DNA from: an uncultured Acidobacteriota bacterium
Lineage (GTDB): Bacteria > Acidobacteriota > Thermoanaerobaculia > Multivoradales > UBA5704
Direction: 5' to 3'
Length of the DNA: 64,000 nt
Assembly: GCA_963761805.1 (NCBI GenBank)
Contig: CAVXIV010000003.1
Span: forward strand, 89,627 to 153,626
In this document: in pieces, positions 2,876-27,276 of the stretch
Layout: every line of letters starts with the position of its first letter
Position numbering within the stretch: position 1 is the stretch's first letter
The notes under the pieces: generated by a model
What the model was told of the DNA's origin: nothing
The model's database searches: none
The model's input: only the letters and a program-made list of their open reading frames with translations
Program-made: the position numbers and the translations under genes

Positions 2876-3473
2876 GAGGCGACCGCCCCGCCCGCGGTCG
2901 CCCGTTTCTGGCAGGAAAATCAGACTTCAATTGTCAAAGATCACGCGGGGAATCGGGATTGAACCCTGATTCCCCGGCCTCGTCCCCGAATATACGGACG
3001 GCCCCCGAGTCCGTCAATAATAATCTTGCCAAAAGCCCGTGGGATCTCGCCAAAAAGTCATTAAGTCGGACCAAAAGCTCTTTTGCTCCGGGCAAAAGAC
3101 CAATTGCCGAAGATAGTGGGTTTTTAGCGCGAGATTCCTCTTGCGCGCCGGACCGAAAGCTCTTTAGACTCCTTCCCGGTCGCATTGCCGCGAGGAAAAG
3201 ATCTTTATCAGTGACCGTGGAAGCTTTTCCGCGAGCAAAAGGGTATTACCTGCGGCCAAAAGAGTTTTTGGAACGGCCTGGGACTCATAGCTACGGGGAA
3301 GAGCTTCAGAACCGCGGCCGAAAAAGGAATAGCCGCGATCCCGAGGGGGAGCGCGGCGGGATCTTTGACAGACGAAGTACCTTTACGGGGCTCCCCGTCG
3401 TGGGCGGGGCGGGGGGCTCCGGATTTTTCTATGGGTGGGGAACGGTGCTGATAGGCGCCGTTCCGGGTTGATT

Positions 3474-3504
3474 CCGCCCCAGGTTGAAACCATGGGGCTA
3501 CCCA
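3474..3504. repeat. 29-nt palindromic element, left copy; its reverse complement recurs at 8636-8663
   Basis: ccgccccaggttgaaaccatggggctacc here matches ggtagccccaggtttcaacctggggcgg at 8636-8663 as its reverse complement, apart from a 2-nt indel. The core ccccagg..cctgggg can fold as a hairpin. Confidence 0.6.
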
Positions 3505-3572
3505 CGAATGTCCCTGAAGGGACGATCCAAACCAAACCTCCCGGCCATGGAGCATGCCATGGTCTCTGGGAC

Positions 3573-3784
3573 CGCCCGGAACGGGCGAAATTTGAATAGC
3601 CCGGCGCTTCAGCGCCGGGTAGGGGGGCCATCAAATTTCCATCCGCCCTGAATGGGCGGGACCCAACGGTTCAGCCAGCCGGAACGTCCGGTTCCGCCAC
3701 CTTCGGGGCGGGGATGGATAGGGGAGATCCCGTTGACCCGGCGCTAAAGCACCGGGCTATTCAGATTCCGCCCATTCTGGGCGG
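3573..3784. repeat. MITE-like composite repeat, left copy
   Basis: The unit is about 212 nt and is bounded by about 48-nt inverted repeats (ccgcccggaacgggcgaaatttgaatagcccggcgcttcagcgccggg at one end, cccggcgctaaagcaccgggctattcagattccgcccattctgggcgg at the other). It also has an internal hairpin ccgccctgaatgggcgg. The whole unit recurs in direct orientation at 8719-8932. Confidence 0.65.
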
Positions 3785-3805
3785 TCCAGGATGGGGCGAA
3801 ATTTC

Positions 3806-6800
3806 TCACGCCTTCGCCTGCACCCACGGCGGCACGGGCGGCAGATCGAAGAACGACGCGTCGTCCGGCAGCCGCAGACCGGGAACGAACTCATCGAGCT
3901 CGCCTACCTCGAACCGGCACAGGTTGATGGCATGCCAGAACCCGCCGGCGATCACGCCGCCGTATTTGTAGCGGCCATCCGGGGCGAAGGCGACCCAGCC
4001 CTCGGGGAGATGAACGAGAATGACGATGCAGCGGCCGGTGGCGACGTCCCAGAGGCGGACGGTGTTGTCGAAGGAGGCACTGGCAAGGGTGTTTCCCTCG
4101 GGGCTGAACACAACGCTTGAAACGCCCCCCTGGTGTCCTTGGAAAGCTTGGCTCTCTCGCCCGGAGGCGGTATCCCAAAGCCGCACGGTTTTGTCGTCGG
4201 ACGCGCTGGCGAGGGTGTTTCCCTCGGGGCTAAACACTACGCTATTGACGCCCTCCTGGTGTCCCTGGAAAGTTCGGACCTCCCGTCCGGAGGCGATCTC
4301 CCAAAGCCGCACGGTTTTGTCGTCGGATGCGCTGGCGAGGGTGTTTCCCTCGGGGCTAAACACCACGCTATAGACATGTCCTTCGTGTCGTTGGAAAGTC
4401 TGCATCTCTCGCCCGGAGGCAATGTCCCAAAGCCGCACGGTTTTGTCGTAGGAGGCGCTGGCGAGGTTCTTTCCGTTGGGGCTAAACGCCACGCTAGAGA
4501 CGCCCCCATGGTGTCCTTGGAAAGTCTGGATCTCTCGCCCCAAGGCAATGTCCCAAAGCCGCACGGTTTTGTCGTCGGATGCGCTGGCGAGGTTTTTTCC
4601 GTTGGGGCTAAACGCCACACTCCTTACGACGCTTTGGTGTCCTTGGAGAGCCCGGATCTCTTTCCCGGAGGCGGTGTCCCAGAGCCGGACGGTGTGGTCG
4701 TCGAAGGCGCTGGCGAGGGTATTTCCCTCAGGGTTAAATGCTACGCTCATAACCCAATCCTGGCGTACTTGGAAAGCCCGGATCTCTTGCCCGGACGCGA
4801 CATCCCAAAGATGTATAGTGTGGTCGTCGGATGCGCTGGCGAGGGTGTTTCCCTTGAGGGTAAAGGCCATGCTTCTGACGCCCCTTTCGTCTCCTTGGAA
4901 AACTCGGATCTCTCGCCCGGAGGCGATGTCCCAAAGACGCAGGGTGCTGTCGTTTGATGCGCTGGCGAGGGTGTTTCCGCCGGGGCTAAACGCCACGCTC
5001 CTCACATACCAGTAGTGTCCTCGGAAAGTCAGGATCTCTACCCCGGAGGCGGTGTCCCAAAGTCGGACGGTTTTGTCGTCAGATGCACTGGCGAGGATGT
5101 TTCCATTGGGACTGAACGTCACACTATTAACAGGAGCTAGGTGTCCTTGGAAATTCCGGATCTCTCGTCCGGAGGCGGTGTCCCAAAGCCGGACGGTTTT
5201 GTCGTCGGATGCGCTGGCGAGGGTATTTCCCTCGGGGCTAAACACTACGCTTCTGACCCAATCCTGGTGACCTCGGAAAGTCCGAATCTTTCGCCCGGAG
5301 GTGGTATCCCAAAGATGCACGGTGTTGTCGTAGGAGGTGCTGGCGAGGGTGTTTCCTGTGGGGCTAAACACCACGCTTAAAGAGCCTCCCAGGTGTCCTT
5401 GGAAAGCTCGGATCTCTCGTCCGGAGGCGGTGTCCCAAAGCCGGACGGTTTTGTCGTCGGATGCGCTGGCGAGGGTGTTTCCCTCGGGATTGAACACCAC
5501 GCTATTAACCCTCCCTAAGTGTCCTTGGAACGCCCGCATTTCTCGTCCGGAGGCGGTGTCCCAAAGCCGGACGGTTTTGTCATCGGATGCGCTGGCGAGG
5601 GTGTTTCCCTCGGGGCTAAACACCACGCTATTGACGGCTCCCTGGTGTCCTTGGAAAGCTCTGATCAGTTGTCCGCTGGAAGGATCCCAAAGCCGTATAA
5701 GGCCCCCTTCTGCGCTAGCCAGCAGGTCTCTTTTAGGATTCCAAGCCACGGCACTGGAAGGCGAGGAAAACAGGGTCATTCCTTCGGGTGCGTCAGGGAT
5801 TCGTAGAGCGGAGCCAAAGAAGTCGGCGGAGTCGGACTTTTCGTCGAGCGAGGCTCCTATCAGCTTTGCGCGCTCGAAAATCGCGTAACCGAGATCGGTT
5901 CCCCTAAGATCGGCCCCCAGGAGGCGTGCGCGAGTGAGATTGGCGTGCGCAAGGTCGGTTTGGCTTAGGTCGGCACGAGTGAGATCCGCGTCCCGGAGAT
6001 TGGCGTAAACGAGCCGTGCCCTGTGGAGACGGGTCCTGATCAACTTCGCGGAGCTTAGATTCGTTCGCTCCAGGTTCGCGTTTTCCAGATTCTGATCCGA
6101 GAGATCCTGGCCAGTGAGATTCTGGCCTGACAGATCTATGGCCTGATCAAGTTTTTCCTGAAGACGATCGAGGACCAGTAAAGCGTTTTTCTTGGGAATG
6201 TCATCGTTGCCCCGAGTCGTTTGGCGAGCCCAGGCAACGATGTTCTCTCTTCCGGTAAAGCTGGTCAGGAAATCGATCATCAGTAACGAGAGATCCTTCT
6301 CGCCCAGCAGGCTTGAGATGCCTTCCTTCTTGAGCCCCTCGGCTGCCGCCTGAGCCACGAGGAACTCCAGGATAGATTGGTGGAGGAAGGAAAAATTACC
6401 TTCGTCATCTCGGACGAGAAGAGTTCCAGAGCCTACCTGGAAAGCAGCAATCGCTTCATCGAAGACGCGATCGATTTTCTGGATCGCCTCGGCGGCATCC
6501 GCTTGGATCTCCTCCAGATTCACATAGCGATCCGTCTTCTGCCAGAGGCGAACGGCCAATAAGGTGACCGCGTTCCAGCGATCCTGCACGGAGAGGCCAG
6601 GAGGCGCTCCCTTGGGATGGACACGCTCAAATTCATGGACGAGCCAGCGCTCCAAGATGAGCCGGTAGAGCGTGGCCGCTGTAATTACTCCACCGGCAGC
6701 AGCCTCGCAGAGCTGCACCTCGGGAAGGTCGGCGATGAATCCCAGCATGCGGGGATTCTCGGAGAGCCCCAGGAGATCCTTGATGCTGTCAATCAGATTC

Positions 6801-16334: not shown

Positions 16335-18847
16335 CTACTTCAGATGGGTCTCGAACAGCTTGTAGATCCGCCGGTACTCGTCGAGCCAGCTCGTGGGCTG
16401 GACGAAGGTGTGATCCTCGACGGGGTAGATGGCCGTCTCGAAGCTCTCCTTCTTCAGCTCGATGAGCTTCTGCACCAGCCGGACCGTGTCCTGGAAGAAG
16501 ACGTTCTGGTCCAGCATGGGGGCGCAGATCAGCAGCGGCTTCTGGAGGCCGGCGGCGTACTCGATGGGCGAGCTCTTCTCGTAGGCCTCGGGGTCGATCT
16601 CCGGGCGGTTGAGGATGTTGGCGGTGTACTCCTCGTTGTAGTGCGCCCAGTCCGCCACCGGCCGCAGGGCCGCGCCGGCGGCGAAGAGGTCCGGCTGGCG
16701 GAAGAGGGCCATGAAGGTCATGAAGCCCCCATAGGAGCCGCCGTAGACGCCGACGCGCTGGGGATCGACGTTCTTGTTCTTCACCAGCCAGGCGACGCCG
16801 TCCTCCATGTCCTCGAGCTCCGGGGTGCCCATCTGGCGGTAGATGGCCGTCCGCCAGTCGCGGCCGTAGCCGGACGAGGCGCGGAAGTCCATGTCGATCA
16901 CCACGTAGCCCTGGCGCGTCAGCAGGGTGTGGAACATGAACTCGCGGAAGTAGCTCGACCAGCCGTAGTGGATGTTCTGCAGATAGCCGGCGCCGTGGAC
17001 GAACATCACGGCCGGATAGGTGCGCGCCGGATCGAAGTCCTTCGGCGTGTAGACCCGCGAGTAGATCGGCCCCGCGCCGTGGGTGGAGGGGACGGCGACG
17101 GTCTCGGGCATCGTCCAGTCCTGGGCCAGGAAGAATTCGGTGCGGGTCCGGGTGACCTGCCGCGCTTCGGCGTCCGGCCGGTTGGGCTGCACGAACAGCT
17201 CGTCGGGACGGTTGATGGAGGAGGCGGTGACGAGGAGCCGGTCCTCGTTCGGCGACAGCACCGGCTCGCCGACCAGGCCGCCGAAGCCGGTGAGCCGCTC
17301 GGCCTTGGCGGTGGCCACTGCGACGCGCCAGACGTCGTACTTGCCCGGATGCTCGCGGTTGGCGACGTAGTAGATGTGCTTGCCGTCCCAGCTCCGCACC
17401 GGGCGCGAGACCTCGTACCGGCCTTCGGGGGTCAGCGGCCGGATCTCCCCGGTGCGGCCGGAGAGCGCGTACAGCCGCGAGTAGCCGCTCTCCTCGGAGA
17501 GGAACCAGAGCGTCTCGTCGTCCGGCAGCCAGCCCATCTCGTTGAAGTCCCAGTTGATCCACGCGGCGTCGGTCAGCCGGTGGCGGGGCGTGAGCTTGGC
17601 GGTGGCGGTGTCGAAGGTGGCGATCCAGCGGTCCTTGTTGTCGCGGGCGCGGAGCTGCACGGCGAGCCTTTGGCCGTCCTCGGACCAGGAGACGTCGGAG
17701 ACTTCCATCGGACGGACCTGGGCGGGCTCTTCCTTCTTCTCTTCCGCCTTCGCCTCTTCGGGCTTGGCTTCGCCTTCAGCCTGGGGCTCGGCCGCGGCCT
17801 CGTCCTTCTTTTCTGCTCGTCCTTCTTCTTCATGGCCTCCTTGCGGACCTTGGCGGCCTCGCGGAGGGCCTTGAGGGGATCGTCCTTGGAGCCGGGGAGC
17901 ACGGCGAGGTCGAGGTCGTGGCGCTCGTGCTTCACGAGGTCGAGCAGGATCACGGAGTGGGGGACGGGCTTGTCGATGCCCACCTTGGAGCGGACGTCGC
18001 GGACCTCGATGTGGCCGCTCTCGGTCACCCACTGGGGGAGCCTGGCGCGCTTGCTCTCCTCGGACCATTTGGGCGCGGTGACCACCAGCAGCCAGTCGCC
18101 GGAGGGGGAGAGGGCGGCGCGCTCGATGACGGCGTCCTTGCCCAGGTACCAGGTCTGGGGCGTACGCGTGGGGTCGTCCTTGCGCAGGGCGAGGTCCTCT
18201 TCGCGTTCCTTCTTCTCCTTCTCCTGCCGCTGGCGGATGACGTCGAAGAAGCGCGTCTGCTGCTCCTGGAGCAGGGTGGGCTCGTCCTTGTCGGCGGGGT
18301 CCTTGTCGAGCACGAGCCGGGCGGGCTGGGAAGTGAGCCCGGTCTCCAGGTCGTAGACGAAGACGTCGTCGCCGGACCGGAAGGTGACGCGGCGGTTGTC
18401 GGCCAGGAAGCGCGGGTCGTCCTCGTCCCCGTCGGTGCGGGTCAGTTGCCGCACGGCGCCGGTCTTCAGGTCCTTGACGAAGACGTCGCCGTGGCGCTCA
18501 TAGACCTTGCGTTTGCGGTCGCGGCTGAGCACGCCGCGCGAGTCTTCCTTCACTCTCTGGGCGGGCTCGATCAGGACCGTCTTGCCGGTGGCGAGATCGA
18601 CGCGGTAGAGGTCCATCCGCTGGTTGCCGATCCCCTCGCGCTGGCGCTCGTAGTAGACCGACCGGCCGTCGTCCGACCAGTAGGGGTTCTGGGGCGGATT
18701 CCCGATCCAATCCGGGTCGGCCATGATCTGCTCGAGAGTCAGCGCGGAATCGTTGTCCGCGGCGAGCGCCGGAGCCGCGGCCAGCGGCAGGGCCAGCAGG
18801 AGGCAGAGGGCTCCGGCGGTGAAGCGGTGTCGTGCGTTCGGAGTCAT
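16335..18847 (-). CDS. S9 family serine peptidase (DPP-IV/prolyl oligopeptidase fold), exported, with one apparent frameshift
   Basis: The N-terminal ORF 17573..18847 has a signal peptide and propeller region. The C-terminal ORF 16335..18068 has GGSYGG (nucleophile elbow) and a catalytic domain. The two join if one A is added in the A4 run at 17809-17812 (KKKDEQKK/KDEAAAEPQ). Confidence 0.8.
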
Positions 18848-18856
18848 TCGTAATCC

Positions 18857-20281
18857 TTATCGAGTAGCCGTCTTCTTCGGAGCCGCGAACCTGTCGCGGA
18901 TCCACTTCGCCACCAGGTCGAGCATGGCGGGATCCATGGTGACCTCGCTGGCCGCGTATTCGGCCGGGCTGCCGGTCTTGGCGGGCTGGAAGAGGTGGTT
19001 GAGGCCGGGCAGGCGGCGGATGGTCACGTCCGGGTTGCCGGCCTCCTTCAGCGCCTTTTCGATCTCGGGGATGTTCTGGTCCGCGATCACCTGGAGGTCG
19101 AGCTCGCCGTTGACGACCAGCACCGGAACCTTGACCTTGCGCAGGGCCGGCCGCGGGTCGTAGTCGAGGAAGTAGCGGAACCAGTTGGAGGTCGCCCTCT
19201 TCACCTGTGCGTCGATCATGTCGTCGCCGCCGGCCTGCTCCTCCGGGCTCTGCAGGGCCAGAGCCTCCTTGCTGAGTTGCCGCAGCTTGGCATCGCGGAC
19301 GGCGGGGTCCTTTTCGGTGCGGATGAGCTCGAGGCTCTGGCGCATGATCGCGTCTTCGCGCTTGATGTTCTCCTCCGGCATCCCGCCGGCGCGGGAGATG
19401 CGCTCGCTCTGGAGGGAGAGGACCTCCGCGCCGGGGACGCCGGTGCCCGCGAGCATCACCACGAAGGCCACGTCCGTGGACTGGCTGGCGGCGAGCGGCC
19501 CCACCACCCCGCCCTCGCTATGGCCCACGAGGCCGACGCGGTCCGGGGCGATCTTCGCGTGCTTTTTGAGGAACCGTACGCCGGCCAGAGCATCCTGCGC
19601 GAAGTCGGCGGTGGTGGATTCGTCGACGCTGCCGGTCGAGCCGCCGACGCCGCGGTCGTCCACCCGCAGCACGGCGATGCCGTTGCGGGTCAGGTAATCG
19701 GAGAGCACCAGGAACGGCTTGTGGCCCAGGAGCGCCTCATCGCGGTCCTGCGGGCCGCTGCCGGTGATGAGCAGCGCGGCGGGGAAGGGGCCGGGGCCCT
19801 CCGGGATCGTGAGCGTGCCGGCGAGCTTGATGTCGCCGTTGGTGTAGGTGACCTCTTCGGAGATGTAGGGAAGCGGCGGCTTGGGCTCCTGCGGCTTGCG
19901 CGCCACCTCGACGGCCTCGCGGCCCAGGCGGAACGGCAGCGAGGCGCTCCCCTGCGTAAAGGTGCCGCGGATGGCGCCGTTCTCCAGCGTGCCGTCGAAG
20001 GTCGGCGCGCCGGGGATGTTCGCGATGGCGAAGCGCACCTTGGAGCCCTCGACCGTGATCCCCTCCAGGGGCAGGTCCTTGGCGCCTTGCTGCGGGATGT
20101 CGATGTCCCCTTTCCAGGCGCCGTTCTCCCAGGTCAGGTCGACCATGACCTGGAGCTTCATCGAGGGGAGCTCGATCTCGCCCTCCCAGTGGCCCGCCGC
20201 CGGGGAATCGGCGGCCTGGACGGCACTGGGGACAGTCATGGGGACGAGGATCAGCAGACAGAGAAGAAGGATGGAACGCAT
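18857..20281 (-). CDS. exported alpha/beta hydrolase
   Basis: ATG at 20281 follows GGAGG. The protein has a signal peptide MRSILLLCLLILVPMTVPSAVQA and a GHSEGG nucleophile elbow. The upstream part of ORF 18857..21136 is Arg/Pro-rich shadow. Confidence 0.8.
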   Translation of the reverse strand: MRSILLLCLLILVPMTVPSAVQAADSPAAGHWEGEIELPSMKLQVMVDLTWENGAWKGDIDIPQQGAKDLPLEGITVEGSKVRFAIANIPGAPTFDGTLENGAIRGTFTQGSASLPFRLGREAVEVARKPQEPKPPLPYISEEVTYTNGDIKLAGTLTIPEGPGPFPAALLITGSGPQDRDEALLGHKPFLVLSDYLTRNGIAVLRVDDRGVGGSTGSVDESTTADFAQDALAGVRFLKKHAKIAPDRVGLVGHSEGGVVGPLAASQSTDVAFVVMLAGTGVPGAEVLSLQSERISRAGGMPEENIKREDAIMRQSLELIRTEKDPAVRDAKLRQLSKEALALQSPEEQAGGDDMIDAQVKRATSNWFRYFLDYDPRPALRKVKVPVLVVNGELDLQVIADQNIPEIEKALKEAGNPDVTIRRLPGLNHLFQPAKTGSPAEYAASEVTMDPAMLDLVAKWIRDRFAAPKKTATR

Positions 20282-20295
20282 TTCGGTCCTCCGTA

Positions 20296-23130
20296 TCAGA
20301 CGGGAGAGGCCGCGGGCCGCCGGCGGAGCCAGAACAGGCCGCCGAGAGCCGCGAACAGGAGAACGCCGCCGGCCAGGGTCCAGGCCCAGACCGGCAGAGG
20401 GGGAAGGGCGGGACCCCGGCGGCCGCCGGGCAGGGGCACGGCGTCGCCGTCGCCGAGCACGACGATGCCGGCCCAGGCGGCGGCGGGAGCGCCCTCTTCG
20501 ATCAGCTCGCGCTGGGCGGCGTGGGCGCTGGCGGCCACGCTGAGGCCCCGGCCGAGATGGTCGTAGAAACGGTCGAAGAATTCGGCGGCCTCGTCGTCGC
20601 GGAGCTTCCAGAGGCTGGCGACCACGGTGTGGGCGCCGGCCTGGAAGAAGGCGCGGGCGAGGCTCATCACGCCCTCGCCGCGCAGCACCGCGCCGGTATT
20701 GGTGCTGCAAGCGGAGAGGACCACGGTGCGGCCTTTCAGGTAGAGGTCGACGATCTCGCGGATCTGGAGCAGGCCGTCCTCGGCGGCGTCGCCGGGGGCC
20801 AGCAGGACGCCCGACCGCTCGGGGTTGGCCTCGTCGGTGACGGCATGGGTGGCGAAGTGGAGCAGCGCGTACTCGTGCAGCGGGGCGTGCTTGAGGAAGG
20901 CCTCGGTAGCCTTCTCCCCCAGGCGCCGCACGCTGCCGCCGCCCATATGGCTCACCACGGAGCGGCTCTCCTGGCGGGCGAAGGGGAGGGCCCCCAGGCG
21001 GTCCGTGGAGGCGAAGACGGCGGCCGAGCGCTCCATGGACGCGAGCGCCGTCCGGCCGTTCCCGCTGCCGGGCGGCGGCGGGTCCGCGAAGACGAGCGCG
21101 GGCGTGCGGGGGGCGGACGGCTTGTCCTCCTTCCATTCCAGCCAGAGCGTGGCGGACGGCGCCTGGCTCAGCCTGTAGCGGGCGGCGAGGGGCCGCGCCT
21201 CCTTGGAAGCCCGCAGGGCGCCGAAGGGGAGCTGGTGCAGCACGTCGTCCGGGATCAGGATCAGCCGCTCGATGCCGGGCGGGAGACCTTCAAGCGCCGG
21301 CTCCAGGAGCTTCCGGTAAAGGGCGATGGAGGGGGTCACCTCGGAGCTGTCCCGCCGGTTGAAGGTACCGTTGAACAGACGGACGGCCGACCTCAGCTCT
21401 CCCCGGCCGGGCAGGCGGTAGGCGCGGGCGCCCTGGCGGGTGACCACGGTCAGCCAGGAGCCGCCGGAGAAGTCCTGCCAGGGGTCTTCCCAGGGCGCGA
21501 TCTGGAAGGAGAGCAGGGCCTCGTTGGCGGCGAGGGCCTGCCGCACCTCCGGGATTCCGGACAGAGGCCGCTGCTCCGCCAGAGGGGGGGCTGCGCGGGC
21601 GAGCTGGTTCTGGATCTCTGCCTCTTCAATCTCCAGGTCGTTGAGATGCCGGACCGCTTCGGTCCTCTCGGCCGCGGGGAGATCGGGGTTCATGAGCCGG
21701 CGCTGGACGCCCGAGAGCTCCTCCCGGACGGCGGCGCGGCGTTGACGCAAGGGCAAAGCCGCCTCCGGCAAGGCCTTGGCGGCTTCCAGCGTGTCCAGCA
21801 GGGTGCGGGCGCGCATCCGTTCCGCCACCAGGAAGGCGCTGCCGATCCCCTCGCGGTTGCCGGCGAGCGCCGCCTCGATCAGGCGTCCGGAGAGCCAGTA
21901 GTAGTCTTCGGACCAGGCGGCGAAGGCCCGGGCCTGGTTGGTGGAGCTCGCCTGGAGCTCGCGAAGGGTCTCGATGGCTTCAAGAGCCAGGCGCGAGTCC
22001 CGGACCACCAGCTTGTAGGGATCGCCCGCCGCCCAGCTCACCCGCATCCGCTCCCGCCAGGCGAAGGCCATGGACCAGTAGTCCTTGGCCTCGCGGGCCA
22101 GCTCCAGGGATTCGGCGATCGCCTTGCGGGCGCGGGGAGGGTCTGTCGAGGCGAAGTGCCGGGCGAGAGCGTTCAGGCAGTAGCTCCGGTCGCGCGCGGT
22201 GTCGGCCGCCTCCAGGCAGGCCTCCAGATGCCGGTAGGCCTCCTCGCCGCTCAGCAGCGTGCCCAATTGCCAGTGCGCTCTGGCCTGGATGCTACGGTAG
22301 TCCGCCGCGACGGCGGCTTCCAGGGTGGCGCGGGCGAGGCGGATCACTTCCTGCCGGCGCTCTTCTGTCGGGATCTCCGCCGCCTCGTCCAGGACAGCCC
22401 GGGACATACCATAGCGGGCCTCGGCTTCTCCCGAGCGGTCCCCCGCGGCCACCGCCAGCTCCACCGCGCGGCGGAAGGCTTCGTAGCCTTCCCGGGAGCG
22501 TCCCAGGTCGACGCTGATGTTGCCCAGCATGTTGAAGCTTTCCCGCTTCGTGTAGTAGTTGTCGCTCTCGACGGCGGTGACGGTGGCGCGCCGGAGCAGG
22601 AGGTAGACCTGCTCGAAGTCGCGGCCGACGCTCCAGAGATGGCGGGCCTTGAGGATCTGGGCCCGCGCGACCGCTTCGGGGTGGCTCGCGGCCTCCGCCG
22701 CTTTGAGCGCCAGATCCGCCTGGGCTCCCGCGTCGTCGACCCGGCCCGCATTGAACAACAGGCGGTGGAGGTTGGCCCGGGCCAGGACCTCGCCCCAGGC
22801 GTCCTTGCGGGCCACGAAACCCTTGACGGCGATGCGGAAGAGCGCCTCCGCGCGCTCCCGGTCCCCCAGCTCGAGGATGCCGAGGAACAAGCTGGGCCAC
22901 GGGCTCTCCGGGTGACGCGACAGCAATTGCCGGAAGCGCGCCGCGGTCTCTTCCGGCCGCTGGAGTCTCTCTCCCACCTTGTCGTAGCACCGGGTGGTGT
23001 CCTCGCTTTCCGGCTGGCTGGCGGCGAGCTTGTCGCACGCGGCGAAGTCGGCCGGCTCGGCGCCTCGGGCCCAGGAAGGGAAAGAAAGCGCCAGGATGAG
23101 GAGGAGGAGAGGAAGAGCCCGGAGCATCAC
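20296..23130 (-). CDS. TPR repeat plus CHAT (caspase-like) domain protein, with signal peptide and C-terminal TM anchor
   Basis: 944-aa ORF with a long N-terminal TPR-like helical region. The CHAT His/Cys dyad context is present (LLHFATHAV and VVLSACSTN). The C-terminus has a hydrophobic helix (WAWTLAGGVLLFAALGGLFWL). Confidence 0.85.
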   Translation of the reverse strand: MMLRALPLLLLILALSFPSWARGAEPADFAACDKLAASQPESEDTTRCYDKVGERLQRPEETAARFRQLLSRHPESPWPSLFLGILELGDRERAEALFRIAVKGFVARKDAWGEVLARANLHRLLFNAGRVDDAGAQADLALKAAEAASHPEAVARAQILKARHLWSVGRDFEQVYLLLRRATVTAVESDNYYTKRESFNMLGNISVDLGRSREGYEAFRRAVELAVAAGDRSGEAEARYGMSRAVLDEAAEIPTEERRQEVIRLARATLEAAVAADYRSIQARAHWQLGTLLSGEEAYRHLEACLEAADTARDRSYCLNALARHFASTDPPRARKAIAESLELAREAKDYWSMAFAWRERMRVSWAAGDPYKLVVRDSRLALEAIETLRELQASSTNQARAFAAWSEDYYWLSGRLIEAALAGNREGIGSAFLVAERMRARTLLDTLEAAKALPEAALPLRQRRAAVREELSGVQRRLMNPDLPAAERTEAVRHLNDLEIEEAEIQNQLARAAPPLAEQRPLSGIPEVRQALAANEALLSFQIAPWEDPWQDFSGGSWLTVVTRQGARAYRLPGRGELRSAVRLFNGTFNRRDSSEVTPSIALYRKLLEPALEGLPPGIERLILIPDDVLHQLPFGALRASKEARPLAARYRLSQAPSATLWLEWKEDKPSAPRTPALVFADPPPPGSGNGRTALASMERSAAVFASTDRLGALPFARQESRSVVSHMGGGSVRRLGEKATEAFLKHAPLHEYALLHFATHAVTDEANPERSGVLLAPGDAAEDGLLQIREIVDLYLKGRTVVLSACSTNTGAVLRGEGVMSLARAFFQAGAHTVVASLWKLRDDEAAEFFDRFYDHLGRGLSVAASAHAAQRELIEEGAPAAAWAGIVVLGDGDAVPLPGGRRGPALPPLPVWAWTLAGGVLLFAALGGLFWLRRRPAASPV

Positions 23131-23173
23131 CCGTGAAGTCTACCGCAGCGCGGCAACCGGAGTGGAAAGCGAA

Positions 23174-23195
23174 GGGCGGCTCCGGAGAGCCGCCC
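23174..23195 (-). terminator. stem-loop after the twin peptide genes
   Basis: gggcggctc-cgga-gagccgccc is a perfect 9-bp GC stem. On the minus strand it is followed by ttcgctttcc. Confidence 0.45.
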
Positions 23196-23231
23196 TGTGT
23201 CTCTATGCGAGGGAGGCGAGAACCTGGCTGA

Positions 23232-23351
23232 TCAGCCCTTCGGGGGCGGCGGATCGGTGCTCGGAGGCGAGGTGCAGCAGGCCGGATTGGGATCCTCGGT
23301 CTCCTTGGTCTTCACCTTCTCGATCTTGGCGTCCTTCACTTTATTGCTCAT
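23232..23351 (-). CDS. 39-aa peptide MSNKVKDAKIEKVKTKETEDPNPACCTSPPSTDPPPPKG (not in the ORF track)
   Basis: ATG follows GGAGAAccgatc. The last 15 codons match those of the neighbouring 42-aa ORF with only synonymous differences. Confidence 0.6.
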   Translation of the reverse strand: MSNKVKDAKIEKVKTKETEDPNPACCTSPPSTDPPPPKG

Positions 23352-23406
23352 GATCGGTTCTCCTATTGCGTCCGGTTGATCTCTGGGATCGGGTCAACGC
23401 CGGGGA

Positions 23407-23535
23407 TCAGCCCTTCGGCGGCGGAGGATCGGTGCTCGGAGGCGAAGTGCAGCAGGTCGGGTCGTTCTCGCTGGAGCCGTCCTTCGTCTCGATCGTCGGG
23501 GCCGGCAGCGTCTGGTTCTGGGTCTCGTCGCTCAT
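23407..23535 (-). CDS. 42-aa peptide MSDETQNQTLPAPTIETKDGSSENDPTCCTSPPSTDPPPPKG (not in the ORF track)
   Basis: ATG follows GGGAGAcccgaaa. It is a paralog of 23232..23351 with the identical C-terminal tail CCTSPPSTDPPPPKG. Confidence 0.6.
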   Translation of the reverse strand: MSDETQNQTLPAPTIETKDGSSENDPTCCTSPPSTDPPPPKG

Positions 23536-23661
23536 TTTCGGGTCTCCCTGTGGCTTCTAGTTTCGATTGGATTCAGGTTTCGTTCGGGTCTCAGGTGTCT
23601 CTCTCGTTGTCTTCCAGGAGGTAGAACGAAGCCGGCCTCCCGATCCCCTCACTTGTCCTCG

Positions 23662-23687
23662 ATACGTCGCCACGATTTTTTTGTTTC
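23662..23687 (-). promoter_or_regulatory. candidate ECF-type promoter upstream of the twin peptide genes
   Basis: The minus strand reads cGAAAC-N16-CGTAT, close to the ECF-type consensus (TGAAAC-N16-CGTA). It lies about 125 nt upstream of ATG 23535. Confidence 0.4.
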
Positions 23688-23736
23688 GCCCGGCGCTCAC
23701 CGTAAGTCGTTGAGTTACTTAGAGGAAAAGCGGCAA

Positions 23737-23767
23737 CCCCCTCGCCGGCGGCGGCCGGACGAGGGGG
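23737..23767 (-). terminator. stem-loop after the anti-sigma factor gene
   Basis: The minus strand reads ccccctcgtccggcc-gcc-gccggcgaggggg followed by ttgccgcttttcc. Confidence 0.5.
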
Positions 23768-23788
23768 CGGACGGAGAGCGGGAGCGGC

Positions 23789-24460
23789 TTATTTCAACGG
23801 AGTGGTGAAGGTCGGCGAGCTCCGGCGGGTACCGTCGGGGAAGACGGCGTCGACCTGCCACAGGAGCGGGGTCCCCGGCGCGAAGCCGGCGAGGTTGCCC
23901 GCGGGGATGCGGTACTCCGTGGCGGTCTGCCCCTGGGCGGTGGCGATCACCTGGAGGTCCTCGGTGCTCACCTGCACGTCGTAGGAGGTGGCGCCGGGGA
24001 CCGGGGTCCAGCGCAGCACGGCTCCCTGGCGGGCCAGCGCCTGACCCTCGGGGAGGAGCGAGCGCACTTCCGTCTGCTCGACGTTGCGGTAGGTGGACTC
24101 CCGCGGGCCGACGCCCGACTGGTAGACGCCCACCGCGATGAGCAGCCCGGCCGCGATGGCGGCGGCCGCCGCAAGGGGACGCCACTGGCCGAAGCGGCCG
24201 ACGATCACCTTGCCGGGGGCGGCGGTCGCCGTGCGGGACGCCTCGCGCTCGATCTCCGCCGCGAGCCGCCAGTCCTCGGCGCAGGCGGCGCAGGAGGCTG
24301 TGTGGTCCAGCACGTCCCGCATCTGCTGAGGCTGCAGCTCACCGCGGACGCCCGCCCAGATCGTCTCCGGGGCCGGGCAGGTCTCCGGCGCCGGCGCCGG
24401 TCCCGCCGGGGCCTGGAACGCGGCGCGGAGTCTCGCGAAGTTGGTGGTGTCGTCGGTCAT
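23789..24460 (-). CDS. membrane anti-sigma factor (zf-HC2) with a periplasmic Ig/FN3-like domain
   Basis: Start is taken at ATG 24460 after GGAGcgacc. The protein has H-x3-C-x2-C (HTASCAAC), one TM helix (AAAAIAAGLLIAVGV) and a beta-rich C-terminal domain. Confidence 0.7.
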   Translation of the reverse strand: MTDDTTNFARLRAAFQAPAGPAPAPETCPAPETIWAGVRGELQPQQMRDVLDHTASCAACAEDWRLAAEIEREASRTATAAPGKVIVGRFGQWRPLAAAAAIAAGLLIAVGVYQSGVGPRESTYRNVEQTEVRSLLPEGQALARQGAVLRWTPVPGATSYDVQVSTEDLQVIATAQGQTATEYRIPAGNLAGFAPGTPLLWQVDAVFPDGTRRSSPTFTTPLK

Positions 24461-24679
24461 GGTCGCTCCTCTCTTCCTACTCATCCAAAACGGAATTGAA
24501 GACTCAAAATCTCCTCGGTCCGCCTGGCGCCTCCCAACTTCCGGGGCTGCCTGCCGGACCTCTCCGCGAAGAAGAACGTATCGGCGGTGTAAATCCCCTC
24601 ACCCTTCGTGCGTATAGAAGAGATCGCCGGTGAGGGGCTGGGGCCGCATCCTTCGTTCTCCAGGTAGGAGGAGGATGCT

Positions 24680-24790
24680 ATGAAGATCAAGACGAAGACC
24701 ACGAAGATCGAGTTGCCCTGGGTCCTGGCCAGCCTGCCGCTGTTCGCGCTGTTCGGGTTCCTGCTGGCCGGCATGGTGGCGCGGTTCTAG
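24680..24790 (+). CDS. possible 36-aa single-TM protein MKIKTKTTKIELPWVLASLPLFALFGFLLAGMVARF
   Basis: A strong AGGAGGAGGA lies 5 nt upstream of the ATG. The peptide has a basic N-terminus followed by one hydrophobic helix. It lies antisense between the sigma and anti-sigma genes, and there is no further support. Confidence 0.35.
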   Translation: MKIKTKTTKIELPWVLASLPLFALFGFLLAGMVARF

Positions 24791-25371
24791 GCCTCGATCC
24801 CCTTCGAGGTGAGGCAGCCGCGCAGGTCGGCCATCCCCCGGTAGACCAGGTTTTCCGCCTTCTTGGCGGTCCAGCCCATGAGCTTGCCGATGTCCGGCAC
24901 GCTGTGCCCCTGGAGGTTGAGGGTCACGGCATGGCGGCGGGGCGCCACCATGAGGCCCAGGCAGTCGCGGATGGCCCGCCCGATCTCACGGCCGGCCGAG
25001 GCCCGCTCCGGGTCGGGGCCGGGCGCGGCGGGATCGTAGGAGACCGCCTCCTCCTTGTCGCTCTCGCTTTCGAGGGAGACCTCCTGGCGGCGGCGCAGGC
25101 GGCGGATCTCGTCGATCAGGGCGCTGTAGGCGGCCTTGCGGAGGTAGAAGGCGGTGAACTCGGCGGTGCCTTCCTTCTTCCTCTGGATCTCCATCACCCG
25201 CATCAGCGCCACCTGGACGAGGTCGTCGGCGCGGTCCCTCATCCAGTGCGGGCAGACGCGGTCCACCGCCCGCACGAGGTCGCGGTGGAGCTGCTCGTAG
25301 TCCGTTGAATACTCCCTGGGTTTCTTCCCTGTATCCGTGATCAAGATCCGCTCCGCCCGAAATCGGGCCAT
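24787..25371 (-). CDS. ECF-type RNA polymerase sigma factor
   Basis: 194-aa ORF with a region 2 segment (DDLVQVALMRVME) and a region 4 HTH (VPDIGKLMGWTAKKAENLVYRGMADLR). Confidence 0.85.
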   Translation of the reverse strand: MARFRAERILITDTGKKPREYSTDYEQLHRDLVRAVDRVCPHWMRDRADDLVQVALMRVMEIQRKKEGTAEFTAFYLRKAAYSALIDEIRRLRRRQEVSLESESDKEEAVSYDPAAPGPDPERASAGREIGRAIRDCLGLMVAPRRHAVTLNLQGHSVPDIGKLMGWTAKKAENLVYRGMADLRGCLTSKGIEA

Positions 25372-25611: not shown

Positions 25612-27276
25612 ATGAACCATAGCGGAAGCTTTGGCGGGGAAGTCAATTACGAGTACATCATCCTCGGCGCGGGGCCCGCGGGCTTGCAGATGGGCCATCA
25701 CCTCTCGCGCGCCGGACGCAGCTACCTCATCCTCGAAGCCGGCGAGACGCCCGGCAACTTCTTCCGGCAGTTCCCGCGCCACCGCACCCTGATCTCCAGC
25801 AACAAGGTCTACACGGGTTTCGAAGACCCGGAGGTCAACCTCCGCTTCGACTGGAACTCGCTCCTCGACGAGGACGGCAACGACAAGCTGCTGTTCAAGA
25901 ACTACAGCCGCAAGTACTTCGCGCCGGCGGACGAACTGGTCCGCTATCTCTCCGATTACGCCGACCACCACGAGCTCAACGTCCGCTGCGACACGCGGGT
26001 CCTGCGCATCGAGAAGCCTCGCGAGACCCAGTTCCGGCTCCTGGACGACCAGGGCAACGCCTACTCCTGCCGGCGCCTGATCGTGGCCACGGGGGTGAGC
26101 AAGCCCTACGTGCCGCAGATCCCGGGCATCGAGCAGTGCGAGAACTACTTCGACGTCTCGGTCGATCCGGAGGACTTCGCCAACCAGCGGGTGCTGGTCC
26201 TCGGCAAGGGCAACTCGGCCTTCGAGACGGCGGACAACCTGATCCCGACGACGGCGATGATCCACGTCGCCAGCCCCAGCCCGGTGAAGCTGGCCTGGAA
26301 GACCCACTACCTCGGGCACCTGCGGGCCGTCAACAACAACTTCCTCGACACCTACCAGCTCAAGACCCAGAACGCCGTGCTCGACTGCGTCATCGAGCGC
26401 ATCGAGCGCCGCGAGGGCGTGCTGGCGGTCTCCGTGCGCTACAGCCACGCCCATGGCGAGACCGAGGAGCTGATCTACGACCGGGTGATCGTCTGCACCG
26501 GCTTCCGCTTCGACGACTCGATCTTCGCCGAGGGTTGCCGGCCCGAGCTGGTCATCAACAACCGCTTCCCGGCGCAGACCTCCGAGTGGGAGTCGATCAA
26601 CGTGCCGGGCCTCTACTTCGCCGGCACGCTCATGCAGGCGAACGACTTCAAGAAGCACAACTCCGGCTTCATCCACGGCTTCCGCTACAACGTGCGGGCG
26701 CTCCACCGGATGCTGGAGAAGAAGCACCACCGCCGCGAGTGGCTGGCCAGCCGCGAGATCGAGGCGACGCCGGAGGGCCTGCTCGAGGCCGCCCTCGCCC
26801 GGGTCAACGGCAGCTCGGCCCTCTGGCAGCAGTCCGGCTTCCTCCACGACGTGATCGTGGTGGACGAGGACTGGGACCACGCCGTGTACTACGAGGAGAT
26901 GCCGCTCGCCTACATCCACGACTGCGAGATCGGCCAGAAGAGCCACTACTACACGATCACGCTGGAGCACGGGAAGATCGCGGGGGATCCATTCAACATC
27001 CCGCGCAACCCCGAGCCGGGCAAGGCGGACGAGAGCGTCTACCTGCACCCCGTGATCCGGCGCTGGTGCGGCCAGCAGCTCATCTCGGAGAAGCATCTCC
27101 TGGAAGACCTGTTCGGCGAGTGGAAGAAGGAAGAGGCCCACATCGCCCCGCTCCGCTACTTCTTCATGGAGCAGCTCCTGGAGACGGTCGACCTCCACGT
27201 CCACCTGAACCTGGAAGAGGACCAGTTCGAGATCGGCATGGGCGAGCCCCGGCGGCCGATGCTGCGGGCGGTCTGA
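25612..27276 (+). CDS. FAD/NAD(P)-binding oxidoreductase (flavin monooxygenase-like)
   Basis: 554-aa ORF with an N-terminal Rossmann GxGxxG (IILGAGPAGL) and a second dinucleotide motif (VLVLGKGNSAFE). Confidence 0.75.
   Translation: MNHSGSFGGEVNYEYIILGAGPAGLQMGHHLSRAGRSYLILEAGETPGNFFRQFPRHRTLISSNKVYTGFEDPEVNLRFDWNSLLDEDGNDKLLFKNYSRKYFAPADELVRYLSDYADHHELNVRCDTRVLRIEKPRETQFRLLDDQGNAYSCRRLIVATGVSKPYVPQIPGIEQCENYFDVSVDPEDFANQRVLVLGKGNSAFETADNLIPTTAMIHVASPSPVKLAWKTHYLGHLRAVNNNFLDTYQLKTQNAVLDCVIERIERREGVLAVSVRYSHAHGETEELIYDRVIVCTGFRFDDSIFAEGCRPELVINNRFPAQTSEWESINVPGLYFAGTLMQANDFKKHNSGFIHGFRYNVRALHRMLEKKHHRREWLASREIEATPEGLLEAALARVNGSSALWQQSGFLHDVIVVDEDWDHAVYYEEMPLAYIHDCEIGQKSHYYTITLEHGKIAGDPFNIPRNPEPGKADESVYLHPVIRRWCGQQLISEKHLLEDLFGEWKKEEAHIAPLRYFFMEQLLETVDLHVHLNLEEDQFEIGMGEPRRPMLRAV

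Follow-up and report, generated by a model that had tools for sequence, protein, structure and literature searches.

The 64-kb window (by which we mean the whole stretch of acidobacterial DNA that was analysed) carries on its minus strand two tandem small genes, here called pepA and pepB, which on the evidence of their substitution pattern are real translated genes, and which form part of a family, so far undescribed, of small acidic proteins that are intrinsically disordered, to judge from their amino acid composition. Members of the family lie immediately upstream of genes for secreted TPR-CHAT proteases, in a module that usually also encodes a sigma factor of the extracytoplasmic function (ECF) type and a zinc-binding anti-sigma (ZAS) factor. 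This obligate pairing with the downstream TPR-CHAT gene, along with a set of ECF-type promoters, is the decisive context that was overlooked in the original prediction, a note made from the letters of the window. We give about even weight to the idea that the peptides are dedicated partners of the secreted TPR-CHAT proteases of Thermoanaerobaculia, acting in trans within a split, DdvS-DdvA-like system. The type of module is itself known; what appears to be new, judging from sequence, is its small-protein component, which is apparently driven by a sigma-dependent promoter.

Two translated genes and their family

pepA, 23407-23535, minus strand: 42 residues, MSDETQNQTLPAPTIETKDGSSENDPTCCTSPPSTDPPPPKG; an identical protein is found in the databases (P0001)
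pepB, 23232-23351, minus strand: 39 residues, MSNKVKDAKIEKVKTKETEDPNPACCTSPPSTDPPPPKG; an orthologue exists in locus L001, where it is uncalled as a gene

Both had been picked out in the original prediction as open reading frames (ORFs) preceded by a purine-rich ribosome-binding site (RBS), and both are present on the minus strand at the coordinates given, with each RBS standing 7 nt 5' of its ATG (GGGAGA at 23548-23543 for pepA, and pepB's own AGGAGA at 23364-23359). The last 15 codons of the two genes encode a common tail, CCTSPPSTDPPPPKG, and the account given of it is exactly reproduced: three codons differ, each at the third position and each synonymously (ACT/ACC, CCT/CCG and CCG/CCC), while the N-terminal halves are unrelated. 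As 26% of the possible single substitutions in this tail are synonymous, three out of three would arise by chance with P = 0.017. The nucleotide likeness between the two genes forms a sharp block of ~53 nt, running from ~6 nt before the Cys codons to 2 nt past the stop codon.

The same signature extends to the relatives, where the entropy summed over 18 gap-free tails is highest at third codon positions (9.6, as against 7.2 at first and 4.7 at second positions); together with the synonymous bias between pepA and pepB, this bears out the earlier claim of purifying selection on a translated product. Frame, AGGAGA RBS (5-8 nt before the ATG) and the ATG itself are kept in 45 ORFs although their lengths vary, and the insertions and deletions are of whole codons, such that the frame is retained. 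The N-terminal halves are rich in Thr (19%), Asp (11%), Pro (11%) and Lys (8.7%), and poor in Arg (0.9%), Leu (2.2%) and aromatic residues (0.7%); for comparison, Arg makes up 10.6% of the CHAT protein, and 24% of the residues encoded by the other two frames of the same peptide DNA. We take this non-genomic composition to indicate selection for a disordered, acidic and Arg-free polypeptide.

A peculiarity of codon use stands beside these results. The Asp codon of the D-P-G/P-P motif (23253-23255 and 23428-23430 in the window) is GAT in each of the 18 tails that align closely, and in 24 of 33 tails overall; the neighbouring long genes use GAC and GAT in the ratio 61:5, and the peptide ORFs are generally richer in GAT.

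More than 100 relatives were found in class Thermoanaerobaculia, each of them either annotated as hypothetical or uncalled. A profile search of 5.8 billion proteins returned 73 members, every one annotated as 'hypothetical' and none with a Pfam domain, and HMMER, run exhaustively over 1.84 billion representatives, gave 42 matches, all of them free-standing proteins of 38-59 residues matched end-to-end; among these 42, no 'Rosetta stone' fusion to a CHAT protein, an anti-sigma factor or an exported protein was seen. Pfam, NCBIfam and PADLOC hold no known family that matches the peptides, in keeping with the earlier remark that the tail belongs to no described family, and a search of Rfam with positions 22900-24000 gave nothing above noise. 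The literature on CHAT proteins with ECF sigma factors, on periplasmic TPR-CHAT proteins and on sigma factors of Thermoanaerobaculia came down to the DdvA and Craspase papers, and such small proteins are not described there.

Family members are 35-60 residues long and consist of a variable, hydrophilic N-terminal part followed by the conserved tail, the core of which can be written as [CC or GD]-x-x-P-[PG]-x(1-4)-D-[PG]-G-P-x(2-5)-stop; examples from across the family are DCCTAPPDTDPGPIKP, GGDAPPDPDPGPIKG, CCTVPGGGDPGPGGPTG and CCRAPGDPDGGPDT. The Cys-Cys pair is missing in about one third of members, which have Gly-Asp instead (L007, L008, L009, L013, L026, L027, L029, L058 and many database members). 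Nor is the Pro-Pro pair invariant, being absent from the tails CCRAPGDPDGGPDT and CCVPKDPGGPDT, and the DPPPPKG ending seen in the window is a lineage variant. A hydrophobic N-terminal segment that might serve as an export signal was found in none of the more than 100 sequences, which extends to the whole family the absence of a signal sequence already noted for the window's pair.

The nearest relative, a Thermoanaerobaculia metagenome-assembled genome (GCA_036376245.1) with a CHAT protein 91% identical to that of the window, encodes both peptides, with a gene called for pepA only. Sequence comparison indicates that the tandem pair and its DPPPP tail are, respectively, a recent duplication and a variant of the window's lineage. 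A Joint Genome Institute (JGI) metagenome contig (L002, 513-638) has a single chimeric ORF, in which the N-terminus of pepA is joined to the middle of pepB (…TVETK|ETEDPNP|TCC…), as would follow from recombination or deletion between tandem copies. In the source assemblies, too, pepA is called and pepB is not, and gene callers have mostly passed over this whole class of small genes, whose hosts are abundant soil Acidobacteria.

Pairing with the TPR-CHAT gene

Loci (referred to here by L numbers) were gathered with a CHAT alignment as anchor, 77 of them from species-representative genomes; synteny was followed by tblastn over 79 loci, and counts of related loci rest on ~65 of these. A hidden Markov model (HMM) of the 15-residue tail, run against 5371 small ORFs from all six frames of 748 kb (the window plus the 79 loci), gave 20 matches at E<1e-4, all of which lie immediately upstream of a CHAT gene, with none elsewhere; two tandem copies were seen in the window's lineage only. 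A separate metagenome scan, anchored on the tail through a degenerate DNA pattern, returned 14 sites, the 14th of which has no ORF; the other 13 are peptide ORFs, and the CHAT gene follows 90-220 nt downstream in 13 of 13. Where the CHAT protein is at least 50% identical to that of the window, every locus has a promoter-like motif (P2, described below) and an ORF of 35-60 residues just upstream on the same strand, and over all loci the combination of small ORF and P2 precedes the CHAT gene in 52 of 65. In all, the search for tail homologues and their neighbours has yielded more than 100 relatives, each of them 90-220 nt upstream of a TPR-CHAT gene.

The neighbours conserved across the ~65 loci are the ECF sigma factor, the ZAS anti-sigma factor and the TPR-CHAT protease, and nothing else. 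The pairing with the protease holds at a finer level: a peptide gene still accompanies those CHAT paralogues that lack a sigma/anti-sigma pair within 4 kb, and second or tandem CHAT paralogues have a P2 motif of their own and their own class of small ORF. Such a second module can lie directly 3' of the first CHAT gene (L012, 6733-10130; L031, 6750-9859; also L014, L025, L062 and L073), and comprises P2, a different small ORF (with a sequence such as ...GYEVTVAYSVTPEENYAGPPGNVVPPNTNS) and another TPR-CHAT paralogue.

In the same place, more distant CHAT paralogues have small proteins of 57-120 residues, with tails of the forms ...FCVTPPxDPxxGPP and ...YSVTPEENYAGPPG. At three of the distant CHAT loci (L049, from 3551; L055, from 3454; L072, ~3413-3856) the peptide position is taken by proteins of 105-120 residues, which have a conserved KRWRGIE(I/F)GFKLR region and a tail of the form ...FC(V/L)TPPxDPxxGPP; these may represent an ancestral, longer form of the family.

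The sigma factor, anti-sigma factor and protease module and its probable transcription units

Read along the minus strand, the order is ECF sigma factor, anti-sigma factor, terminator-like hairpin, pepA, pepB, terminator and TPR-CHAT protease. The three long genes are as follows.

ECF sigma factor gene, 24787-25371, minus strand: 194 residues; Pfam Sigma70_r2 and Sigma70_r4_2, just below the gathering cut-offs
Anti-sigma factor gene, 23789-24484, minus strand: 231 residues; ZAS motif C...HxxxCxxC at the N-terminus, one transmembrane (TM) helix and a periplasmic domain of ~110 residues
TPR-CHAT protease gene, 20296-23130, minus strand: 944 residues; Sec-type signal peptide, then ~9 TPR-like repeats and a caspase-like domain (CHAT), with a TM helix at the C-terminus and RRR behind it

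In ~40 loci the anti-sigma gene has an orthologue of the sigma factor (43-96% identity) encoded upstream of it. The anti-sigma factor matches Pfam zf-HC2 with E = 0.0011, which is below the gathering cut-off, but its CHCC residues and TM segment are conserved in 26 orthologues. Its true start is probably the ATG at 24460, after GAGGAG (the gene call in L001 is 224 residues long), and its periplasmic domain is possibly Fn3-like, there being a weak PDB match to an Fn3-like protein. The segment around the first zinc ligand, APDPxSCPxPET (~24340-24400), is loosely like the peptide segment TPDGSCCTAPPD.

The protease has a clear CHAT domain (Pfam CHAT, E = 3.5e-58), in which H758, H762 and C808 are invariant in 18 orthologues; judging from their position, these would supply the catalytic His-Cys dyad. 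In an AlphaFold 2 model the TPR part is confident (pLDDT ~90) and the CHAT part is weak. Foldseek matches to the full-length model include the TPR-CHAT protein of Craspase (7y8t_B), separase (9hvy) and DdvA (8rw5), with TM-scores that are low owing to the weak CHAT part, whilst the best matches to the TPR part are LGN/Pins, proteins that wrap around extended, disordered peptides. A PDB sequence search with the CHAT profile likewise returned the TPR of LGN/Pins and nothing else.

Within the CHAT protein, at residues ~677-690 (window ~21070-21100), there is a conserved PALALADPPLPGG segment that is similar to the peptide tail. It reads ADPPPPG in the window's lineage and in L030, the peptides of which have DPPPP or DPPP, with L005 as a counter-example; the likeness may be mimicry, or a coincidence of low-complexity sequences.

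Between and around these genes lie a number of short elements.

P1 promoter-like motif, 23663-23687, minus strand: GAAAC-N16-CGTA, a classical ECF-type -35/-10 pair; in the same position in ~30 loci
P2 promoter-like motif before pepA, 23625-23650, minus strand: GAGGGGATCGGGAGGCCGGCTTCGTT; starts 115 nt before the pepA ATG
P2 promoter-like motif before the anti-sigma gene, 24575-24600, minus strand: GAGGGGATTTACACCGCCGATACGTT; ~90 nt upstream of the anti-sigma start
P2 promoter-like motif toward the 36-residue ORF, 24632-24657, plus strand: GAGGGGCTGGGGCCGCATCCTTCGTT; back-to-back with the anti-sigma copy, 31 nt apart
Small ORF with a single TM segment, 24680-24790, plus strand: 36 residues, MKIKTKTTKIELPWVLASLPLFALFGFLLAGMVARF; RBS GGAGGAGGA; in the spacer between the sigma and anti-sigma genes, convergent with the sigma gene
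Terminator-like hairpin 3' of the anti-sigma gene, 23731-23747, minus strand: CGGCGAGGGGGTTGCCG then CTTTTCCTCT
5' leader, 23536-23618, minus strand: purine- and A-rich, unstructured; includes the RBS GGGAGA (23543-23548)
Intrinsic terminator of the peptide unit, 23173-23196, minus strand: AGGGCGGCTC-TCCG-GAGCCGCCCT then TCGCTTTCC; 10-bp GC stem and T-rich tail
-10-like element of the CHAT gene, 23136-23143, minus strand: GTAGACTT (TAGACT), 5-6 nt before the CHAT start codon, with no RBS

P2 is nearly invariant, with the consensus GAGGGGATC-N13-TTCGTT, and stands ~115 nt before the ATG and 38 nt downstream of P1; it is found upstream of the small ORF in 53 of 65 loci. The 26-nt motif has ~110 occurrences across 674 kb of loci, against the handful that chance would give, and the whole 64-kb window holds three copies only, all at this locus. 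The 36-residue TM ORF that follows one of them is confined to the window and its close relatives L019 and L001; in other loci a strong terminator comes 70-110 nt after the third copy of P2 (sometimes replaced by a P1-type motif), an arrangement which suggests a small RNA that shares a bidirectional terminator with the sigma gene. We read P1 and P2 as putative promoters because of the back-to-back copies and these stand-alone units. A role for P2 as an RNA element was considered and rejected, since copies set back-to-back 31 nt apart leave no room for other promoters, and since P2 with ~90 nt and a terminator can stand alone. By analogy with the usual autoregulatory logic of such systems, the neighbouring ECF sigma factor would be the one that reads P2.

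The leader downstream of P2 is unusually free of structure, with a minimum free energy of -3.8 kcal/mol, against -12.8 +/- 3.1 for shuffled sequences (z ~ +2.9); no consensus structure emerged over 41 loci, and neither a conserved leader fold nor an anti-terminator was found. At the other end of the unit, 37 of 43 loci have a hairpin with a T tract 8-40 nt past the stop codon, its GC stem being 9 bp or longer (median 13 bp), and the RNAalifold consensus has compensatory changes in 9 of 11 pairs; the reading of the hairpin after pepB as a terminator, with its 10-bp GC stem, TCCG loop and T-rich tail, is thereby upheld. Beyond it, the hexamer TA[GCA]ACT lies within ~10 nt of the CHAT start (6-7 nt in most), with no RBS, in 35 of 43 loci, which suggests that the CHAT mRNA is leaderless and made from its own -10-type promoter. 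A short CCGC-nnn-GCGG element often stands just before this hexamer. With its own promoter motifs, unstructured leader, strong RBS and covarying terminator, and with a separate promoter motif for CHAT, the peptide gene looks like a self-contained transcription unit designed for strong expression, set between the anti-sigma and CHAT genes. The same compact regulatory design (tandem ECF-type promoters, unstructured leader, strong terminator and leaderless downstream gene) is repeated for each paralogue.

Proposed role, rival functions and flanking genes

In Myxococcus xanthus, the ZAS anti-sigma factor DdvA, partner of the ECF sigma factor DdvS, carries a large TPR-CHAT part in the periplasm, and is proposed to act as both sensor and site-1 protease ahead of RseP (PMC11506125); the promoters of DdvS read GTAA-N16-CGT (PMC6061681). 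The locus in the window is like this system in pairing an ECF sigma factor with a CHCC/ZAS anti-sigma factor that crosses the membrane once, and in having a large TPR-CHAT protein that is extracytoplasmic and keeps an intact His/Cys pair (the cleavage of the anti-sigma factor being only proposed for DdvA too), and ECF-type promoters with CGT in the -10 (here GAAAC-N16-CGTA and GAGGGGAT-N14-TTCGTT). It is unlike DdvA in that the TPR-CHAT protein stands apart as a secreted polypeptide, has a promoter, a signal peptide and a C-terminal anchor of its own, and is not fused to the anti-sigma factor, which is short; unlike DdvS-DdvA, the local regulon would consist of the anti-sigma gene, the gene for the small protein and either a small RNA or a small TM ORF, rather than of CBASS or CRISPR genes. 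No small protein has been described for DdvA.

We suggest, then, that the locus might work as a split DdvS-DdvA, in which the periplasmic TPR-CHAT protein would serve as sensor and site-1 protease for the membrane-bound anti-sigma factor, and in which the released sigma factor would transcribe the anti-sigma and peptide genes from P2. The C-terminal tail of the peptide (P-P-D-x-D-P-G-P, near the free C-terminus) would then bind its cognate TPR-CHAT protein, either at the TPR groove or at the active site, as a pseudosubstrate (in the manner of securin on separase), a substrate or a ligand, and so close a feedback loop. That the peptide should act in trans on its cognate protease is suggested by their constant co-occurrence, by the private class of peptide that goes with each CHAT paralogue, and by the conservation of a short motif near a free C-terminus. 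We also entertain a more specific version, which is possible though doubtful: that the peptide is a sigma-induced cognate ligand of the periplasmic site-1 protease, being either a bacterial 'securin' that re-locks it after signalling, or a self-made signal read by the TPR groove, such that the whole would form an autoinducing ECF circuit. If true, this would mean a private peptide for each CHAT paralogue, and a new export route for signal-less, hydrophilic peptides in Acidobacteria. Given that the coupling of periplasmic TPR-CHAT proteins to ECF sigma factors has only just been recognised, through DdvA, the family is a candidate for what activates or restrains such proteases, and a concrete one: the putative regulator is always encoded beside the protease, is apparently sigma-induced, and has a conserved tail of ~15 residues that can be synthesised.

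Several observations weigh against a partnership between peptide and protease. The peptides have no recognisable export signal, while the TPR-CHAT protein lies outside the cytoplasm, as does the sensing domain of the anti-sigma factor; this mismatch of topology, the chief difficulty, means that direct contact would need either an unrecognised export route, or an encounter before the protease is itself exported. There are also distant sigma/anti-sigma/CHAT triads (35-36% identity; L062 and L066, with an example in Acidobacteria bacterium Mor1) that have no peptide gene, which makes the small protein a later accessory rather than a core part. P1 and P2, moreover, are promoter-like by sequence and arrangement only, with the -35 part of P2 lacking the usual AAC, and the structural model has low confidence in its CHAT part.

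Comparison with other systems offers partial parallels. In type III-E Craspase, the TPR-CHAT protease Csx29 cleaves Csx30, and Csx30 in turn controls RpoE, an ECF sigma factor (PMC10028731). The window's locus would share with it a TPR-CHAT protease coupled to an ECF sigma factor by proteolysis of a protein that binds the sigma factor, as well as the match in fold, but Craspase is cytoplasmic, RNA-guided and CRISPR-associated, whereas here there are no Cas genes, the CHAT protein is secreted and the partner would be a disordered protein of ~40 residues. The separase-securin pair combines a helical-repeat, caspase-like protease with a small, disordered pseudosubstrate, and separase is among the Foldseek matches, the binding of peptide to CHAT being only proposed here; securin, however, is ~200 residues long, cytoplasmic or nuclear, and bears no sequence relationship to the peptides. 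The Rap-Phr systems of Firmicutes, and the RRNPP group more widely, comprise many paralogous cassettes of a TPR receptor and its private peptide, the gene for which is often read from an alternative sigma promoter. As in Rap-Phr, the gene for a TPR protein here adjoins that of a presumptive cognate small peptide; Phr, in contrast, has a Sec signal, is re-imported and meets a cytoplasmic receptor, where we see a signal-less peptide and an extracytoplasmic protease.

The missing export signal could also be taken to mean that the peptides stay in the cytoplasm, as regulators or outputs of the ECF pathway that make no contact with the protease (acting on the ZAS domain, the sigma factor, the site-2 protease or Clp degradation of the anti-sigma fragment), with their adjacency to CHAT reflecting co-regulation. 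The ECF-like promoters common to the peptide and anti-sigma genes would fit such a role, as would the loose likeness of PDPxSCPxPE, around the first zinc ligand of the anti-sigma factor, to PDGSCCTAPPD in the peptide. We nevertheless think it unlikely, in view of the peptide class specific to each CHAT paralogue and of the peptide genes kept where no sigma/anti-sigma pair lies within 4 kb; and with Cys-Cys missing in one third of members, mimicry of a zinc or redox site would not be general. We regard as improbable, too, a cis-acting leader or arrest peptide, whereby a ribosome stalled on the Pro-rich tail would govern read-through of the terminator into CHAT. XPPD, DPP and PPP are stall motifs dependent on elongation factor P, and XPPD/DPP-type motifs occur in many tails. 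SecM, MifM, TnaC and ApdA/ApdP are likewise short ORFs upstream of the gene for an envelope protein, with ~15 Pro/Gly-rich residues at the C-terminus behind a variable N-terminus (the conserved stretch being 12-16 residues here); the terminator follows 8-40 nt past the stop codon, and the preference for GAT at the Asp of DPGP hints at a constraint on nucleotides or translation. That same spread of 8-40 nt, however, leaves no fixed geometry between ribosome and hairpin, no alternative anti-terminator structure was found in a leader that appears selected to be unstructured, and Pro-Pro is not invariant among the tails. Unlike in the known arrest peptides, the ORF and the downstream gene are parted by a terminator and an independent leaderless promoter, with the CHAT -10 motif conserved ~7 nt before the start and no structure or RBS to unmask, and the N-terminus is constrained in composition, an avoidance of Arg for which a leader peptide has no need; the tandem duplication of a leader peptide would also be hard to rationalise.

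The original prediction had recognised the layout either of a secreted signalling peptide or of a ribosomally synthesised and post-translationally modified peptide (RiPP) precursor. The former would be possible, though no export signal was found. The latter has a variable leader and a Cys/Ser/Thr/Pro core which is modified by enzymes and exported. Small size, the Cys-Cys-Thr-Ser motif of the window's copies, their tandem arrangement, and a short, strongly expressed unit ending in a terminator, as in many precursor genes, all have a RiPP-like look. We now consider this very unlikely. The absence of radical-SAM, YcaO or Lan enzymes, already remarked upon for the vicinity of pepA and pepB, extends across 65 loci, in which no such enzyme, other tailoring enzyme or transporter is conserved, and the sigma factor, anti-sigma factor and TPR-CHAT protease are the sole constant company; the one adjacent enzyme is periplasmic and the peptide has no export signal; Cys-Cys gives way to Gly-Asp in about a third of members; the adjoining proline-specific peptidases are restricted to the window's lineage; and no precursor family in NCBIfam or Pfam matches. 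As for a non-coding element, such as the seed or structure of a small RNA, or a repeat, we find it scarcely credible as the source of the conservation. A short unit with a terminal hairpin does resemble a small RNA, GAT is invariant in the closely alignable tails, and a GATC-containing sequence is found both in the tail and in P2; set against this, substitutions are concentrated at synonymous sites, frame, RBS and ATG survive whole-codon insertions and deletions, Rfam has no match, the leader has no consensus RNA structure, and the tail HMM matches one frame and one position per locus.

Two further sets of neighbours were considered as partners and set aside. A divergent flavin adenine dinucleotide (FAD) oxidoreductase gene (25612-27276) accompanies the module in only ~15 closely related loci, and its presence is hence a matter of synteny. 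The downstream proline-specific peptidases, S15 (18857-20270) and S9/DPP-IV (16335-18847), which might have served as processing enzymes, are found in the window and in L001/L019 only. The S9/DPP-IV gene, on the minus strand, breaks near 17810 into two frames that overlap, while its orthologue in L001 is intact at 841 residues, which points to a frameshift in the window, reflecting either a pseudogene or an assembly error.

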